Positions 7,039-58,673 of a DNA stretch of 64,000 nt are shown here, piece after piece. This DNA is from a virus (taxonomy: Duplodnaviria > Heunggongvirae > Uroviricota > Caudoviricetes), in IMG/VR virus record IMGVR_UViG_2706796742_000001, positions 1 through 64,000 of that record. One strand, written 5' to 3'. A model generated the notes under the pieces. That model worked only from the letters and a program-made list of their open reading frames with translations, had not been told where the DNA came from and made no database searches. Position 1 is the first letter of the stretch. Every line of letters starts with the position of its first letter. The translations under genes and the position numbers were made by a program.

Positions 7039-7044
7039 TACACA

Positions 7045-7066
7045 GGCTCCTTCGGGAGCCTTTTTC
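7045..7066 (+). terminator. rho-independent terminator (same hairpin as at 5291)
   Basis: GGCTCC-TTCG-GGAGCC followed by TTTTT. Confidence 0.65.
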
Positions 7067-7084
7067 ATTTCAGGAGGTTGTTAA

Positions 7085-8585: not shown

Positions 8586-9371
8586 ATGGGTATTGTAAAA
8601 ATTATCAATGGTGATATCTTTGCCGCATTTGATAAAAGTAAGTTTGATGTCATTGGTCATGGCTGTAACTGTATGAATTTCATGGGTGCAGGTATTGCAG
8701 CAACTATTTCTAAGCGTTATCCAAAAGTATATGATACTGATACAGAAGTTTACCTGTTTGCAGGTGGTATTCGCCACAAACCATGTGAAAACCTACTAGG
8801 TAATTTCTCTGTAACACGCTTAAAACAAGGCCGTGTAGCTAACCTTTACACCCAACTTCATACTGGTAAAGATGCCCGATACAGTGCTTTAGAGTCATCT
8901 TTGAAGCAACTTAACAGATACTGTGAAGTTAATAAGTTGAAGAAAGTTGGTTTACCTATGATTGGTGCAGGTATCGGTGGACTAGACCCTCAAGCCGTCA
9001 CAGTTATCATTAATCAGGTGATGAAGAGCGTAGATGTTTACCTGTATGTCTACGAGACAGAGATGTACAACGAGTTACACTCAGGTTGGAAGAACTATTG
9101 CGAACCGGAATACTTTGCAGGTGTAGTAACGTTCACAGACAATACAGTTACCCTCTTCAGACGAAGAAAAGGTAAGATACATCAAAGTAACCCTCCGGTT
9201 GAAAAGATGTCCCTAAGTAACGCTCTAGTTACCCACCTGTCGAAGAGCAATCACAGAATTGCCGTGACATTTGGTAGCGATGCAGACACCTACATCTATG
9301 CAAGAACTGATGAGGATATCGAGACAGTTTTCTCATCACCGGAAGTTACCTTCTTAGACGCAAAGAACTAA
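8586..9371 (+). CDS. macro-domain protein (ADP-ribose binding or hydrolase-like) with C-terminal extension
   Basis: N-terminal pattern GDIF...DVIGHGCNCMNFMGAGIA and later LPMIGAGIGG resemble macro-domain glycine motifs. Confidence 0.5.
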   Translation: MGIVKIINGDIFAAFDKSKFDVIGHGCNCMNFMGAGIAATISKRYPKVYDTDTEVYLFAGGIRHKPCENLLGNFSVTRLKQGRVANLYTQLHTGKDARYSALESSLKQLNRYCEVNKLKKVGLPMIGAGIGGLDPQAVTVIINQVMKSVDVYLYVYETEMYNELHSGWKNYCEPEYFAGVVTFTDNTVTLFRRRKGKIHQSNPPVEKMSLSNALVTHLSKSNHRIAVTFGSDADTYIYARTDEDIETVFSSPEVTFLDAKN

Positions 9372-9439
9372 GAAACCCTGTAGAATATTCACAATAGACT
9401 AAGCCTTTCTTATCTGGTAAATTTTTCAGGTAAGGAGGG

Positions 9440-9640
9440 CTTTTTCATTTCAGGATTGTGCAGGTAGATTTCTGTAGAGAAATCTGTAGAGAGAATTTTG
9501 AACTCCAAAGAGAAAATCCATTTTCAAACTGTGCAGGTAATCTCCAAAGAGCTTTTTCATTTTCAAAACGTGCAGATAAAAATCAGGTCGGGCAAGAAAA
9601 ATCATTTTAGAATTGTGCAGGTAGGTGGGTGCAGGTGGGG
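9440..9640 (+). repeat. iteron-like array: four direct repeats of about 23 nt ending in TGTGCAGGTA plus degenerate copies
   Basis: CTTTTTCATTTCAGGATTGTGCAGGTA, TCCATTTTCAAACTGTGCAGGTA, CTTTTTCATTTTCAAAACGTGCAGATA, ATCATTTTAGAATTGTGCAGGTA, then GGTGGGTGCAGGTGGGG. Confidence 0.6.
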
Positions 9641-9799
9641 ATGTCGCCATTTCTCACAAGACTACCACATCTGAAAAGAAAAGTCAACAGAAAAATTTGT
9701 AGCGGATTGAAAAATAATTCTTGATTGTAGTTCTGTTTTGTGGTAGTCGCGTGCGCCCGTTTCATTACATTTTTGCCAAAAATATTTTTAAAATTTTTC

Positions 9800-9828
9800 T
9801 TGACTCCTCGAACGGGGTTATCTAGTAT
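9800..9828 (+). promoter_or_regulatory. sigma70-like early promoter with A/T-rich upstream region
   Basis: TTGACT-N17-TAGTAT preceded by AAAAATATTTTTAAAATTTTTC. Confidence 0.5.
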
Positions 9829-9838
9829 TTGCATCAAC

Positions 9839-9859
9839 GGGGAGGGAATGACCTTCCCC
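9839..9859 (+). repeat. class-B early cassette hairpin, copy 1
   Basis: GGGGAGGGAATGACCTTCCCC followed by conserved ..TAAACTAGGAGATTCAAAAATG leader. Confidence 0.6.
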
Positions 9860-9893
9860 ACTAAGTAAAACCCTTAAACTAGGAGATTCAAAA

Positions 9894-10085
9894 ATGGCAT
9901 CAAGAAAAATCAAAGTTGGCGACGAGGTTAACGTAAAACATGAATACTCTTACAAAATGTTAACTATTCGCTCTTACAAGGTTTATCAGGTGGAAGCTAT
10001 CCACGAAGATGGAACATTTTCACTAAAAGGATATAGCGAACGTTTCCCTGCTGAATTGTTCGAAAAATGGAGCACTAAAAAATGA
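9894..10085 (+). CDS. hypothetical early protein
   Basis: Small ORF preceded by class-B cassette hairpin and GGAG RBS. Confidence 0.5.
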   Translation: MASRKIKVGDEVNVKHEYSYKMLTIRSYKVYQVEAIHEDGTFSLKGYSERFPAELFEKWSTKK

Positions 10086-10847: not shown

Positions 10848-11138
10848 ATGGCTATTATCAAAAACGTTGTAATTACTGCAAAAACTCGTGATGATGCTCG
10901 TGTTATGGCTAAAAAGTTATGCGGGAAAGTGATTGACAACGGGAAACAATCTGCTGTAAGGTGGGGCGTGAAGGCTGATAAACAGTTGAAGTTAAAAAAT
11001 TCACCGATAAACCTTTTTACATGTGTAAACACTATTGGGAAGACAAATGTATACACGAAAAAGGCATACATTAGACGCGTAGCATTAACATCCCCCATTC
11101 GTACAATGAGAAGTTATGCAAAGCTAAAAATTAATTAA
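10848..11138 (+). CDS. hypothetical early protein (basic)
   Basis: Preceded by class-A cassette variant and GGAG RBS. Confidence 0.5.
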   Translation: MAIIKNVVITAKTRDDARVMAKKLCGKVIDNGKQSAVRWGVKADKQLKLKNSPINLFTCVNTIGKTNVYTKKAYIRRVALTSPIRTMRSYAKLKIN

Positions 11139-11525: not shown

Positions 11526-11851
11526 TGACTGGCATTACTGCAATCATAGCCATTATAGCGCTATATAAGGCATATAAAGCCTATAATCTGGCAAGTAAGG
11601 CAATCACGCAGCAGGTTAATAATAGCCTTGTAGAAAGCTTTCTAGGGCGTTTAAGTGATGAGCAAATAAAGCGGCTAGAAATGAGCTTCAGATTTCAATC
11701 AAAAACTTATCAAATCAGCGACATTTTCAAAGAGGATTTTCAGCTTGTCGATGATTATAACGCCCTGATAAATGCTTTAAATATCAGTGACTTAAAAGAC
11801 TATTACACTGTAATTGTTCAAGAAATGAGCAAACGAAAAAATTCCTCTTGA
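11519..11851 (+). CDS. hypothetical early protein with N-terminal hydrophobic segment
   Basis: Start overlaps upstream stop; TM-like ITAIIAIIALY. Confidence 0.45.
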   Translation: MLMTGITAIIAIIALYKAYKAYNLASKAITQQVNNSLVESFLGRLSDEQIKRLEMSFRFQSKTYQISDIFKEDFQLVDDYNALINALNISDLKDYYTVIVQEMSKRKNSS

Positions 11852-11886
11852 TTTTGGTTTTAAAAGCAAGTAAATTACTAATCAAC

Positions 11887-11907
11887 GGGGAGGGAATGAC
11901 CTTCCCC
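11887..11907 (+). repeat. class-B cassette hairpin, copy 2
   Basis: AAGCAAGTAAATTACTAATCAAC then GGGGAGGGAATGACCTTCCCC. Confidence 0.6.
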
Positions 11908-11939
11908 ACTAAACAAAGTCCTAAACTGGAGATTCTAAA

Positions 11940-12212
11940 ATGTATACTACTAACAACGGTCGCACCTTAAACGTAACACTGCGCCACTATGTGAACGGTG
12001 TAATGCACTTCGAGGATTTACAAGCTGAACAACATATCTTGGATTGGCAACTTGCAGGATTCCAAAAAACTGCTACCGGATACGGGAAAAAGATTCCAAC
12101 TAGTTGGAAAGTATACTACAAAGGACGTTTGCGCAGAATTTATCAGGATGTTTACAGCAATAGCGCAACAAGTTACATCATGGTAAAAGGTAAAAAGCTG
12201 CATTTAGTGTAA
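11940..12212 (+). CDS. hypothetical early protein
   Basis: Preceded by class-B cassette. Confidence 0.5.
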   Translation: MYTTNNGRTLNVTLRHYVNGVMHFEDLQAEQHILDWQLAGFQKTATGYGKKIPTSWKVYYKGRLRRIYQDVYSNSATSYIMVKGKKLHLV

Positions 12213-12711: not shown

Positions 12712-12897
12712 TTGATTTTGGTTTTAAAAGCAAGTAAATTACTAATCAACGGGGAGGGAATGACCTTCCCCACTAAACAAAGTCCTAAACTGGAGATTCT
12801 AAAATGTTTGGTTTTAAAAGCAAGTAAATTACTAATCAACGGGGAGGGAATGACCTTCCCCACTAAACAAAGTCCTAAACTGGAGATTCTAAAATGG
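12712..12897 (+). repeat. tandem duplication of class-B cassette (two complete units of about 90 bp)
   Basis: Block GGTTTTAAAAGCAAGTAAATTACTAATCAACGGGGAGGGAATGACCTTCCCCACTAAACAAAGTCCTAAACTGGAGATTCTAAAATG occurs twice in tandem; first unit has no downstream gene. Confidence 0.65.
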
Positions 12898-13791: not shown

Positions 13792-14025
13792 ATGCTTACA
13801 ACCGTTTACCTTATCCTTTCCATCTGTAATGGTCATTCATGTGATTTTAAAGGTCTCGAGGAGTTTACAGGGAGTAAAGAAAATGCTATTCAGGTTTGCC
13901 AGATAGCAAGACAAGACTACCCCGCCAGTGATGATATTCAATGTTACTTTAAGACAGAAGACAGCGACGGCGTTTATTTTGACAGCGTTGATGGTCAATA
14001 TGAAATTATCATTGATAAAGACTAG
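13792..14025 (+). CDS. hypothetical early protein
   Basis: Preceded by GCCCCTGCAAGGGGC hairpin and aggagg RBS. Confidence 0.5.
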   Translation: MLTTVYLILSICNGHSCDFKGLEEFTGSKENAIQVCQIARQDYPASDDIQCYFKTEDSDGVYFDSVDGQYEIIIDKD

Positions 14026-14060
14026 ACAAGCCGGATAAAAGCCTGTAAATTGTCAATCAA

Positions 14061-14081
14061 CGGGGAGGGAATGACCTTCCC
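14061..14081 (+). repeat. class-B cassette hairpin, copy 5
   Basis: GGGGAGGGAATGACCTTCCCC. Confidence 0.6.
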
Positions 14082-14114
14082 CACTAAGTAAAGCCCTAAA
14101 CTGGAGTTCTCACA

Positions 14115-14261
14115 ATGTCAAATGCAGTTGAAACGGTTTTTAACAATCCGGTATTTTCAGAGATGATTTTCTCGTTTATCATGATGTTACTTGTTAAAAC
14201 CATGAAAAAGGCCGAAAAATTACACTCAAAGAAAAAAGCTATTGCAAACCGTTTTAAGTAA
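14115..14261 (+). CDS. small membrane protein (48 aa)
   Basis: Hand-traced ORF MSNAVETVFNNPVFSEMIFSFIMMLLVKTMKK... after class-B cassette; below the ORF-track length cutoff. Confidence 0.35.
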   Translation: MSNAVETVFNNPVFSEMIFSFIMMLLVKTMKKAEKLHSKKKAIANRFK

Positions 14262-14712: not shown

Positions 14713-14820
14713 TGTTCGAGGGGGTTTATCTTAAAGGGATTCACTTAAAAGATTTCTTTAAAGATAAGTTTAAAAAATTGCTTGCAATCAGATATCAAAG
14801 CAAGTAAATTACTAATCAAC

Positions 14821-14841
14821 GGGAAGGAAATGACCTTCCCC
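14821..14841 (+). repeat. class-B cassette hairpin, copy 6 (variant)
   Basis: GGGAAGGAAATGACCTTCCCC. Confidence 0.55.
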
Positions 14842-14873
14842 ACTAAACAAAGTCCTAAACTGGAGATTCTAAA

Positions 14874-15404
14874 ATGAACAAATTTCAAGCTATCAACTAT
14901 ATTCGTTCCGTCAATGTCATGTCAAAGCCTGTAAAAGATACGTATGAATTTCGTTGTAATGGTGTACACTTCGCAACAATCACCAAATCAGAAAACGGGG
15001 CTTATTACGTTCATCGCCGTAATGTTGCAACCGTTGTAGTCTCTCATTTTATGCAAGCTGTCGCGGAACTTCTCCCGATGTTTTTGGGTCTTTACTTGGA
15101 TGAGTGTAAAAACGTTCATAATCACGTTAAAAACCTTTTAAACAGTTATAAAATGGCTTATGAGCGTTCAATCAAGTCCTTGAACAAGTTTTATAAAGCC
15201 CCTGAAAACACCATATCAATGGCCTACGCTGAAAATGGTGAGGTCGTGAGTATCTTCGAAGTGGAAGAAATCGAACTGCATGACTTACGCCCTGAAGGTT
15301 ATTCTAAAACCATCGGCGAAGGTTTAACGTTCAATATCAAGAATTTAGAAAAAACTTTAAAAGATATCGAAAAAGATATTGACGAGACAATCAAAAGTCT
15401 GTAA
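14874..15404 (+). CDS. hypothetical early protein
   Basis: Preceded by sigma70-like promoter and class-B cassette variant. Confidence 0.5.
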   Translation: MNKFQAINYIRSVNVMSKPVKDTYEFRCNGVHFATITKSENGAYYVHRRNVATVVVSHFMQAVAELLPMFLGLYLDECKNVHNHVKNLLNSYKMAYERSIKSLNKFYKAPENTISMAYAENGEVVSIFEVEEIELHDLRPEGYSKTIGEGLTFNIKNLEKTLKDIEKDIDETIKSL

Positions 15405-15417
15405 GTTACTAATCAAC

Positions 15418-15438
15418 GGGGAGGGAATGACCTTCCCC
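15418..15438 (+). repeat. class-B cassette hairpin, copy 7
   Basis: GGGGAGGGAATGACCTTCCCC. Confidence 0.6.
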
Positions 15439-15470
15439 ACTAAACAAAGTCCTAAACTGGAGATTCTAAA

Positions 15471-15719: not shown

Positions 15720-15757
15720 TCAACGCAGCGGGGCTAAATAGCCCCAGATACCTTTAA

Positions 15758-15783
15758 AGCCCCTTTATATGGGGCTTTTTTAC
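15758..15783 (+). terminator. rho-independent terminator closing the plus-strand early block
   Basis: AGCCCC-TTTATAT-GGGGCT followed by TTTTTT. Confidence 0.6.
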
Positions 15784-15785
15784 GT

Positions 15786-17369
15786 CCTATCAAATCCCTT
15801 TCCTTTCCCTTTCCAGAATCTATCCCATACCTTAAAAGGCAATAACTCTATAGCTTACTCTATAGCCCCTTATCAAATTAACTTAAATATAAGCCCATAA
15901 CCCGAAAGGGAAGGGCAACCATTTAAACGCTCTATAAAGCCCTATAACAGCCTTATCAACCCAACTTAAGGGATTGCATTACCTCACCCTTAAAAACCCT
16001 TTATAAAGCTTCTTAGAGCCTTAAAAGAGCCTTAAAAGAATCTTATAAGGGTGTAAGCTTTATCATCTCGTTAGTATCTAGTGAACTACTAGAAAGGGCT
16101 TGATAATACTTAAAAGGTATGCTATGGAAAGCTTAAAAGAGGCTATAAAGTTACGTAAATGCTAGCCCCCTTAACATTTTCTTAACAATTTCTTAACAAT
16201 CCCTACATAGTTATGCTTGTTAGTAACTTGTTAGCCCCTTGTTAAATCTCTGTTAAAACCACGTAAAAGCCTTGTAAGAGCCTTTGGCATAGCCTTTAAA
16301 GCCCCTGAAAAGCCCTATAAAGAGCCTTCTATACAGTTGGGGTGCAATTACTAGGGAGAGACTAAAAGGAGCTTATAAGGGGCTATAAAGGGCTTTTAAA
16401 AGGGCTGTTTAAAAGGTCACTAAGAGAGAAAGGGAACGATAAGAAAAGAGAAGTTGTGTTTGTTAACAACCACTGTGCCCATGTTAACAGCTTGTTAAAA
16501 AGATTAAACACTTGTTAGGAACTTGTTAATTATCTTAACAAAATAACCCTTTAAAATTAACTTGTTAGCTCCTGTTAGTCATCTGTTAAGCATCCGTAAA
16601 GACTATTAAGCACTTGTTAGAAAACTGTTACCCTCTTGTTAAAACTGTTAAGAATCTGTTAATACCTCTGAAGAGATGTTAAAAGGTTGTAAGAACTGTT
16701 AAGAGATTGTTAATGATATTTTAAAATTCTGCAAAGGGGATGTTAAGGGGATGTTAAGGGCTACCAAGCAGATATACATCATGAGGTAGATTCTACCGAA
16801 TCAACTCTACAGATATTTTTGAGTTCCTTCAAAGACCCTAAAAAATGACTTGATAGTCCTATTTTATAAAAATTTTAAAATTCTGAATAATTACCTATAC
16901 AGTCTTTTAAAAATACAGGCATAAACAGGCTTATAAGATACCTTGTTAATACCGTGTTAGACCTTGTGAGATAAGGTCTGTAAAGATATTCCTGTTAAGT
17001 TTGTTAAAACAGTCTATATAGAGGCTTAGTAATACCCAGTGAACACCTATAGAGGGTAACATAGCTAACCTAGAGATTAAGAGGTGTATAGGGGCTTCTA
17101 AGAGGCTATAGAGGGATGGTTAAGGTGATTGTATAGGTTGTTAAGAAGACTTGTTAGAAGAGTGTTTAGAAGGGCTATACAGAGGTGCTATTAAGACCAC
17201 TAGATAGATACTAAGATACTATATAGTACTATATAACTATATATAGAGAGTAAGCTTAAGAAGGATGTTAAGAAGGTTAGATATTTTTATTCACATATGA
17301 TGGTGACCCAGAGGTTGGGACAACCGATAAAATTTTATAAAAATTATAAATTTCGTAAAATTTACTCAA
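15786..17369. repeat. 1.6-kb ORF-free region densely packed with short degenerate repeats, between convergent terminators
   Basis: No ORF of 60 aa or more in any frame; sub-blocks of CCTTAAAAG/CTTATAAG/CTATAAAG (about 15790-16400), YTGTTAR such as CTTGTTAG and CTGTTAAG with at least 18 copies (about 16440-16760), and TATAG/GTTAAG (about 16980-17280). Confidence 0.7.
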
Positions 17370-58343: not shown

Positions 58344-58673
58344 TTAATCTGCCAACCTTAAATTAAAATTAACACCAAATTTTTCACATACTTCCAACAT
58401 AAACTCAAGAGAGACATTACCAGTGAGGTTGATTATGTTGGATACACGAGCCTGAGAGATACCACAAATTTTAGCAACTTGCTCTTGAGAAAGACCTCTG
58501 GATTTAATCTCTCTCTTAAAACGATGTGCAACGAAATCTCTCATTTCGTCTACATCCATTGGACAAATATAACTTTCCATTTCAGCCTCTCTGTCAGCCT
58601 CCCAATCATCTTGTGGAGCATAAGGGTCAAAAACCTCATTCATCTTTCTTCTTCCGTTTTCGTGAAGTGTCAA
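58344..58673 (-). CDS. XRE-family helix-turn-helix DNA-binding protein
   Basis: HTH segment LSQEQVAKICGISQARVSNI. Confidence 0.55.
   Translation of the reverse strand: MTLHENGRRKMNEVFDPYAPQDDWEADREAEMESYICPMDVDEMRDFVAHRFKREIKSRGLSQEQVAKICGISQARVSNIINLTGNVSLEFMLEVCEKFGVNFNLRLAD

Follow-up and report, generated by a model that had tools for sequence, protein, structure and literature searches.

The 522-nt intergenic gap at positions 9372–9893 of the window (the whole 64,000-nt stretch of phage DNA analysed here) contains four direct repeats, all on the + strand, which together form a real, genome-unique and deeply conserved direct-repeat element. The most likely reading of its role, to which we assign a probability of roughly 0.38, is that of a site on which an origin-type complex would assemble. 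The window belongs to the genus Felixounavirus and is about 97% identical over the array stretch to DE7, Seyj1-1 and GEP101. As the original prediction stated, the array lies in a non-coding gap, which is bordered on the 5′ side by the gene of a 261-aa macro-domain protein ('phosphatase'; 8586–9371, +), the last of a series comprising rIIA, rIIB and small genes, and on the 3′ side by an early gene of 63 aa (9894–10085). About twenty small genes follow downstream, to which the annotation assigns no function, and a Pfam search of 10 neighbouring small ORFs returned no domain.

Each repeat unit measures about 33–35 nt and is asymmetric and bipartite, i.e., a purine-rich 6-mer and a 5-nt A or T tract are followed by TCATTTY, a spacer of six to seven bases (N6) and GTGCAGGTA, with a right half-site of the form GTGCA(G/T)(G/A); the core was defined as 17 nt. 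Unit 1 (9432–9466, +; GGAGGG-CTTTTT-CATTTC-AGGATT-GTGCAGGTA) and unit 3 (9544–9578, +; AAAGAG-CTTTTT-CATTTT-CAAAAC-GTGCAGATA) are of the T-tract type, and unit 2 (9505–9539, +; AAAGAG-AAAATC-CATTTT-CAAACT-GTGCAGGTA) and unit 4 (9589–9623, +; GGCAAG-AAAAAT-CATTTT-AGAATT-GTGCAGGTA) are of the A-tract type. A 31-nt repeat family has its members at 9436–9466, 9509–9539, 9548–9578 and 9593–9623, and unit 2 of the window shows TCC in place of the consensus TTC. The four conserved copies that had been predicted are thus confirmed on the + strand, with copy 3 deviating in that it carries CGTGCAGATA where the other copies have TGTGCAGGTA. However, the conserved unit is longer than the approximately 23-nt motif originally described, and the start-to-start spacings are 73, 39 and 45 bp rather than 50–76 bp.

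The repeats occur nowhere else in the sequences in which they were sought by position. The exact TGTGCAGGTA is found only at 9457, 9530 and 9614 within the 64 kb. A looser core, CATTY-N7-GTGCA, gives four matches in the 64-kb window versus 0.34 expected, all four being array sites on one strand, and none of 100 shuffled controls reached at least four matches. GEP101, a relative with a complete genome of 88,372 bp, likewise has the core at its four array positions only. Occurrence at similar density elsewhere in the genome had been named beforehand as an outcome that would speak against the prediction; the motif is instead unique to this locus in both the window and GEP101. The possibility that the units represent a class of promoters was considered and rejected, since a −35/−10 geometry is not conserved and the motif lies upstream of no other gene.

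All four genera of the Ounavirinae carry the array in an unchanged order and orientation, namely Felixounavirus, Mooglevirus (Mijalis, Sf14), Suspvirus (SUSP1) and Kolesnikvirus (phiEa104). Felixounavirus has a spacing of 73/39/45, Mooglevirus and Suspvirus share one of 75/41/45, Kolesnikvirus shows 37/37/39, and unit spacing is constant to about 2 bp; one unit has been lost in three genomes (L149, L188 and L014). Across 35 non-redundant sequences, identity to the window is 95% at the 44 core positions versus 83% in the rest of the array, and among 11 cross-genus representatives the values are 93% and 67%, respectively. Not one of 5000 permutations matched the core contrast in either of the cross-genus sets. 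The contrast is weaker within Felixounavirus alone (95.6% for the core vs. 90.5% for the rest), where 179 of 5000 permutations matched it. The core of unit 1 shows no variation across genera, and in unit 3 both TCATTTTCAA and GTGCAG are unchanged in the 35 sequences. The array is also the best-conserved non-coding element found in the early region.

Conservation extends further, to a deep lineage represented by two uncultivated contigs of 85–88 kb (L220 and L221). A blastn comparison of these contigs with the window found no nucleotide similarity, and their flanking proteins are 30–43% identical to those of the window. Directly 3′ of the macro-domain gene, the contigs carry five units of the form AAAWTCATTTT-N6-GTGCATAGG, which gives a cross-lineage consensus of tTCATTTt-N6-GTGCA. 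In all lineages, the array is preceded by the upstream terminator and followed, at a distance of about 180–200 bp, by the first early-module promoter. The conservation in related phages anticipated by the original prediction is strong, even in relatives that share no other nucleotide similarity. A single unit proved too short for scanning IMG/VR, yielding chance matches only, and a two-unit pattern was used instead. Two-unit scans of IMG/VR, JGI metagenomes and one genome per bacterial species recovered arrays in this phage group only; besides the Ounavirinae arrays, the bacterial-genome and metagenome scans returned unrelated repeats and no new context hinting at a binding protein. Genome uniqueness together with strong conservation speaks for a functional cis-acting site at which a DNA-binding factor acts, and the sequence comparison indicates that selection has maintained the array throughout the Ounavirinae and beyond.

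Between units 1 and 2, the segment 9466–9504 (+) contains the palindrome AGATTTCT-GTAG-AGAAATCT at 9466–9485 and a pair of TCTGTAGAGA at 9471–9480 and 9483–9492, spaced by 12 nt and overlapping the palindrome. The small tandem duplication noted in the original prediction is this TCTGTAGAGA pair; it is real and is additionally part of the palindrome. The segment is weakly conserved outside Kolesnikvirus. In Kolesnikvirus (L163, phiEa104), however, a full or near-full motif unit occupies the equivalent of 9466–9504, and on this ground the segment looks like a decayed fifth unit. The Kolesnikvirus spacing of 37/37/39 accordingly suggests that the 73-bp interval corresponds to two units, the middle one having decayed in most genera.

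Beyond unit 4 lies a hypervariable cassette with identity of 40–66%, which in the window is of a type designated allele A (9624–9677, 54 nt). The first 14 nt of allele A (GGTGGGTGCAGGTG, 9624–9637) are a tandem duplication of the right half-site, and the degenerate tail that had been counted with the array (GGTGGGTGCAGGTGGGG, 9624–9640) is the start of this allele. The tail does exist, but it does not hold as an array member, being a lineage-specific 14-nt duplication that Felix O1, KhF3, the Mooglevirus phages and a close relative (L014) lack. Its limitation to some lineages places it outside the conserved element. Felix O1, KhF3, the Mooglevirus phages and SUSP1 (Suspvirus; L180) carry allele B, a polypyrimidine sequence (CCCCTCTTACTCCCCC), and Kolesnikvirus has a C-rich tract at the cassette position. 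Local alignment of alleles A and B in both orientations gave scores no better than shuffled controls; an inversion switch was thus rejected, as the two alleles lack homology in either orientation. Several public records and contigs break within 9660–9790, one of these contigs ending in a Nextera adapter and another being chimeric. Misassembly at the poly-C or variable cassette appears to account for these breaks.

The remainder of the gap contains several transcription signals. The Rho-independent terminator of the upstream operon (rIIA to the macro-domain gene; +) consists of a hairpin at 9401–9442 and a T-run extending to 9451, and was identified by a terminator scan, by the KhF3 annotation and as the dominant hairpin of the + strand fold. 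Its 3′ stem and T-run also serve as the left arm of unit 1, whereas terminator and unit 1 are separate in Kolesnikvirus; the same 16 nt (CTTTTTCATTTCAGGA) recur behind another terminator at 7060–7075. Downstream of the cassette, a conserved A-rich block (9678–9726; AAAAGTCAA..GAAAAATTTGTAGCGGATTGAAAAATAATTCTTGATT) carries two diverging −35-like hexamers and is 76–90% identical across genera. A candidate leftward promoter directed into the array can be read at 9659–9687 on the − strand, with TTGACT (9687–9682), a spacing of 17 nt, TAGTCT (9664–9659) and a TG at the extended −10 position. This candidate was read from the sequence and did not appear in a consensus promoter scan; its −35 and 17-nt spacing are present in both alleles, and the −10 of allele B is poor (TAAGAG). 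A candidate rightward promoter-like element (9721–9749, +; TTGATT, 17 nt, TAGTCG) forms an inverted repeat with 9655–9669, and the conserved final G of its TAGTCG is atypical for sigma-70.

A GC-rich stretch separates the A-rich block from an AT-rich block at 9762–9799 (AAAAATATTTTTAAAATTTTT; about 83% A+T), which lies directly 5′ of a strong sigma-70-like promoter (9800–9828, +; TTGACT-17-TAGTAT) and may act as an UP element or as a DNA-unwinding element. The array was originally described as just upstream of an early promoter. It does lie upstream of this strong promoter; however, it is not immediately adjacent, the promoter beginning 177 bp beyond the last unit. The promoter opens the first promoter-hairpin-leader cassette (9800–9893, +), composed of the hairpin GGGGAGGGAATGACCTTCCCC and a shared leader with GGAG, with the ATG at 9894. 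The arrangement recurs six more times, at 11881, 12745, 12835, 14056, 14815 and 15412, giving seven cassettes in total 5′ of small early genes of the terminal module.

The position of the array relative to the physical ends of the genome can be derived from published terminal repeats. The direct terminal repeat of UAB_Phi87 was measured at 608 bp by Bal31 digestion and run-off sequencing, that of Pr103Blw was predicted to be 581 bp by PhageTerm from sequencing reads, and the terminal repeat of UAB_69 was published by its authors. The repeats of UAB_69 and Pr103Blw align to window positions 16163–16767 (about 0.6 kb), showing that the array is not the genome terminus; on the same ground, the array was rejected as a physical terminus or pac site. 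The right physical end is about 7.1 kb away from the array, a distance of about 8% of the genome. A dense TTAACA/TGTTAA cluster marking the terminal repeat is found 4.9–7.5 kb 3′ of the array in 10 genomes of four lineages, the distance being 6.55 kb in the window, 7.3 kb in Kolesnikvirus and 7.5 kb in the deep lineage, the last value assuming that the contig is joined circularly at a repeated promoter. Thus, the array marks the inner edge of the right-terminal early module (5–7.5 kb) in the lineages checked. In the deep lineage, a further, small TTAACA cluster follows immediately on the last array unit; in L221 this cluster holds an 18-mer identical to window positions 16171–16188, a site lying 8 nt in from the left edge of the terminal repeat.

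Several lines of evidence bear on whether the array acts as DNA, RNA or protein. The genera differ by indels of 2, 4 and 6 nt, which disrupt any reading frame and do not come in multiples of three, and the invariant runs are contiguous. The 5-nt tract is T5 in some units and A4–5 in others, in a pattern that differs between genera and lineages. Together with the lack of RNA covariation, the frame-breaking indels and the A5/T5 flips point to the array acting as double-stranded DNA. A role as RNA, either as a repeat-containing non-coding RNA or as a protein sponge, would find a source of transcription in the candidate leftward promoter, and a small protein could be proposed from the short ORFs annotated over the region in several records, e.g., those of DE7, Felix O1, Mijalis and Sf14. 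However, the records disagree on the strand and frame of these ORFs, which are interrupted in the window. The interchange of A5 and U5, which is neutral for the groove shape of DNA, would not be neutral for an RNA. Moreover, Rfam assigned no family, giving two chance-level matches (E about 0.9–1), the − strand fold was no better than shuffled sequence (z = +0.2), the + strand fold signal is due to the terminator alone, and RNAalifold returned weak consensus folds with essentially no covariation on both strands. We therefore regard either form, RNA or small protein, as highly improbable. Even less credible is a functionless relic, i.e., tandem duplications of the terminator tail persisting by descent. 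The identity of the left arm of unit 1 with the terminator tail, and the recurrence of these 16 nt at 7060–7075, would fit such an origin of the sequence. Against it, the core persists where other nucleotide similarity is gone, its conservation is well over that of the spacers, and the spacing is fixed across genera.

On the basis of its layout, we infer that the double-stranded array is a head-to-tail protein-binding array. TCATTT and GTGCA lie about 12–13 bp apart, centre to centre, and these asymmetric half-sites, the orientation-free A/T tract and the head-to-tail order of the units suggest one protomer per unit. A sequence-specific protein would then bind the array head to tail, the two DNA-binding surfaces of a single protomer contacting TCATTT and GTGCA in successive major grooves, and the flanking A/T tract would be read by shape rather than by base. 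This model is drawn from the way in which iteron-binding Rep and other two-domain DNA-binding proteins work. The protomers together might form an ordered nucleoprotein complex by which a phage early protein would mark the array as an origin-type site. The AT-rich block at 9762–9799 and transcription from the neighbouring promoters would supply opening and priming, and the opened, primed site could be used by the T7-like primase-helicase and polymerase set that the phage encodes.

An origin-type role is ranked above the regulatory platform discussed below, which is its main rival, on the basis of the same-orientation asymmetric repeats, the single-copy nature of the element, the nearby promoters and AT-rich block, and the lack of a described origin in this family. 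Asymmetric repeats in the same orientation are the usual layout of initiator-bound iterons, such as those of lambda O, plasmid Rep proteins and T4 oriE, whereas phage operators are usually palindromic. Where an origin is expected to have at least three same-orientation direct repeats in non-coding DNA, the gap has four and a decayed fifth, and the AT-rich block and promoters are 140–200 bp from the array. However, classical iterons are 17–22 bp repeats with a period of about 22 bp, in contrast to a unit of about 33 nt and a period of 37–45 bp in the array. The annotations of GEP101 and of the first 50 kb of SUSP1 contain no gene recognisable as an initiator (Rep, O, RepA or DnaA-like), and none lies beside the array, whose flanks are the macro-domain protein and small ORFs without a Pfam match. 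The gap holds no more DnaA, IHF, Fis and CRP sites than background, GC skew does not change at 9.5 kb, and the 83% A+T block is separated from unit 4 by about 140 bp that include the variable cassette and the GC-rich stretch. In addition, gene orientation does not diverge at the array, so that a leftward fork would run head-on into transcription. Phages with a T7-type replisome can start replication at promoters without an initiator, and the T7-like set encoded by Ounavirinae phages might do without one.

The interpretation of the array as origin or operator therefore stands in part. A functional binding array is supported by its uniqueness and conservation, and an origin role and a regulator role are both candidates for it. 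The label 'iteron-like' fits the head-to-tail asymmetric layout; it does not fit the period, the lack of a Rep-type gene, the lack of a DnaA/IHF excess or the unchanged skew. An operator in the lambda sense is not upheld, as the units are non-palindromic and at least 177 bp from the strong promoter. Host-factor sites were also considered, by scan for DnaA, IHF, Fis and CRP and by eye for the Mar/Sox/Rob box, LexA and Chi, and none fits: the Mar/Sox/Rob box has GCAC-N8-AAA versus GCAC-N7-AAA in the array, and the only Chi match has one mismatch and falls within the non-conserved tail.

The main rival, which we consider possible but rather unlikely, is a regulatory platform, in which a phage or host protein on the four units would control the promoters at 9659–9828 by bending, looping or acting as a barrier or, in an alternative form, would insulate the early module from read-through of the upstream operon. 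The location of the array between the upstream terminator and the first early-module promoter in every lineage agrees with this role, as does the conserved block with diverging promoter-like hexamers that follows the array. The phage also encodes a conserved XRE-type HTH protein (58344–58673, −), whose SUSP1 counterpart is annotated as a transcriptional regulator; however, palindromic sites are the norm for XRE-type proteins, whereas the array units are non-palindromic, asymmetric direct repeats. Nor do the sites overlap the strong promoter, and the six sister promoter-hairpin cassettes lack array sites, which means that the single array cannot account for control of the whole module.

A much less probable alternative takes the position of the array near the right end as its starting point. 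As a T5-like DNA-entry boundary, the array would hold or pause the incoming genome after the right-terminal module of about 7 kb, with the consequence that host-takeover genes would be expressed before the remaining genome arrives. A terminal block of small early genes has its inner edge at the array, about 8% from the right end, the injection-stop region of T5 is similar in its position, its untranslated repeats and its conservation over neighbouring genes, and the deep lineage has TTAACA repeats of the direct-terminal-repeat type directly after the array. However, no two-step entry has been reported for Felix O1-like phages, and the inverted repeats, palindromes, eight DnaA boxes and 10-kb terminal repeat of T5 are all lacking here. 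The distance to the end varies by 2.6 kb, as would be expected from simple conserved gene order. Slightly less probable still is the fuller version of this proposal, in which the right-terminal module with its seven self-contained promoter-hairpin cassettes would come in and be expressed first, the array would be the stop or anchor of this two-step Ounavirinae genome entry, and an early protein would release the remaining DNA; if true, an unrelated myovirus family would have arrived at a T5-like strategy from entirely different sequence parts. Very unlikely, in turn, is an accessory site for concatemer processing or packaging, e.g., one recognized by terminase or an accessory protein together with the terminal repeat. 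No small terminase or pac site is known for Felix O1-like phages, and the array of L220/L221 adjoins a repeat cluster of the terminal-repeat type, both of which would accommodate such a site. Against this, the dense TTAACA cluster lies 4.9–7.5 kb downstream in the lineages checked, the deep lineage included, and the ends map to 16163–16767, as based on experiment in UAB_Phi87 and on PhageTerm prediction in Pr103Blw.

The array appears to be previously undescribed. The Felix O1 genome paper (2010) lists other repeats, the array not being among them, and states that temporal regulation is not understood; the PhageMaP essentiality paper covering Bas63 holds no intergenic data for that phage, and our search found no literature on transcriptomes or origins of Felix O1-like phages. 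Felix O1 and its relatives rank among the most widely used phages for diagnostics and biocontrol of Salmonella and E. coli. The 17-nt core gives a precise handle for pull-down, footprinting and deletion, and identification of the array-binding protein would give a function to one 'hypothetical' early protein. If the array is an origin, it would tell what reduced genomes must retain and what could drive phage-dependent plasmid amplification.

Among known systems, the T4-type PeSL (promoter-early-stem-loop) cassettes are like the seven neighbouring, near-identical promoter-hairpin-leader cassettes and unlike the array, which is single-copy and carries no promoter consensus. The sites of phi29 p4 are few, bear A-tracts (CTTTTT ... 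AAAATG), are partly read by shape and serve the early-to-late switch. The array would resemble them as a small set of A-tract sites between promoters that may be partly shape-read and bound by a multi-protein complex. However, the p4 sites are inverted repeats overlapping the regulated promoters, phi29 is unrelated and infects Gram-positive hosts, and a p4 homologue is not evident in the window phage. The T5 injection-stop region lies 7.9% from the end that enters, consists of untranslated repeats and exceeds the neighbouring genes in conservation; it comprises inverted repeats, palindromes and eight DnaA boxes inside the 10-kb terminal repeat. The array is like this region (Repeat Region 3 of the left terminal repeat) in lying at the inner edge of a terminal early segment. 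Whereas the T5 region spans 1.2 kb, the array covers 190 bp, is made of simple direct repeats, lies outside a terminal repeat of 0.6 kb and shows no excess of DnaA boxes.

With the iteron origins (lambda ori with O; P1 oriR, R6K, pSC101 and RK2 with Rep; T4 oriE with RepEB), the array shares several asymmetric repeats in the same orientation, genome uniqueness, a non-coding location, A/T tracts and an AT-rich block nearby. It differs from them in its period (37–45 bp vs. about 22 bp), in its bipartite unit of about 33 nt, in having neither an adjacent initiator gene nor an excess of DnaA/IHF sites, and in the distance of about 140 bp to the AT-rich block. The T7 primary origin and T4 oriF/oriG, by contrast, are composed of a promoter and an unwinding element only, with no repeat array, and the host RNA polymerase would have to make the primer for an array-linked origin. 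Nevertheless, the array resembles these origins in the promoters and AT-rich stretch beside it and in the T7-like replication proteins of the phage, and also in lying in the early region, fairly near one genome end.

The array is adjoined by a hypervariable cassette (9624-9677 of the window), which occurs as two alleles unrelated to each other. An assembly-break hotspot coincides with this cassette, judged from the corresponding positions of L019, L021, L026, MT446388 and MN850610. Two metagenome contigs stop at an identical base within the poly-C allele, one of them running into Nextera adapter, and one contig changes to foreign GC-rich sequence past array unit 3. In addition, the start or end of two GenBank records falls at the cassette. 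These breaks likely reflect sequencing difficulty, while a physical feature of the DNA, e.g., a nick or a structure, may be responsible instead.

The conserved A-rich block that follows (9678-9726) is flanked by an inverted repeat, CACAAGACTACCACA / TGTGGTAGTCGCGTG, with arms at 9655-9669 and 9739-9753. Each arm contributes a −10-like TGnTAGTC at a 17-nt spacing from a hexamer (TTGACT or TTGATT), and the two promoter-like elements so formed point apart; in the rightward element, the last −10 position is an atypical G, which is kept in all relatives. An identical 16-nt terminator tail, CTTTTTCATTTCAGGA, is found in the stretches 7040-7075 and 9440-9455, each time after a distinct terminator hairpin, which suggests a common origin of the terminator T-runs and the left arm of the array repeat unit.

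The only recognisable sequence-specific DNA-binding protein seen in this analysis is a 109-aa helix-turn-helix protein of the Cro/C1 (XRE) type, encoded on the minus strand (58344-58673) in the replication-gene block, whose counterpart in the related phage SUSP1 is annotated as a transcriptional regulator. This protein is therefore a candidate for binding the array. However, XRE-type proteins usually bind palindromes, which counts against this assignment.

Besides the array, the 1.6-kb stretch at 15720-17297, which has no ORFs and surrounds the terminal repeat (16163-16767), is a second candidate for a packaging, replication or protein-binding site. The stretch is dense in YTTGTTAR / TGTTAAGA repeats, several with an 11-nt period, and is likewise crowded with AAGCCCCT / TATAAAG repeats; TTAACA/TGTTAA occurs there at 35 per kb, versus 1.8 per kb across the whole window. 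In L220 and L221, contigs of an uncultivated deep lineage, a 160-nt cluster of TTAACA repeats directly follows the array (10860-11020 in each), and these repeats form a bigger cluster about 7.5 kb beyond it. The L221 cluster includes TTAACATTTTCTTAACAA, which is identical to window positions 16171-16188, 8 nt inside the left terminal-repeat boundary.

The small early genes of the window are preceded by seven cassettes nearly identical in sequence (9800-9893, 11850-11940, 12715-12805, 12805-12895, 14025-14115, 14785-14875 and 15380-15470), in each of which a sigma-70-like promoter is followed by the hairpin ATCAACGGGGAGGGAATGACCTTCCCCACTAA and then by the common leader ACAAAGTCCTAAACTGGAGATTCTAAAATG. 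Two copies, those at 12745 and 12835, form a 90-nt tandem duplication. In the related phage KhF3, the cassette hairpin is annotated as a terminator on the minus strand. The cassettes are similar to the promoter-early-stem-loop cassettes of T4-type phages, which are thought to shuffle genes.
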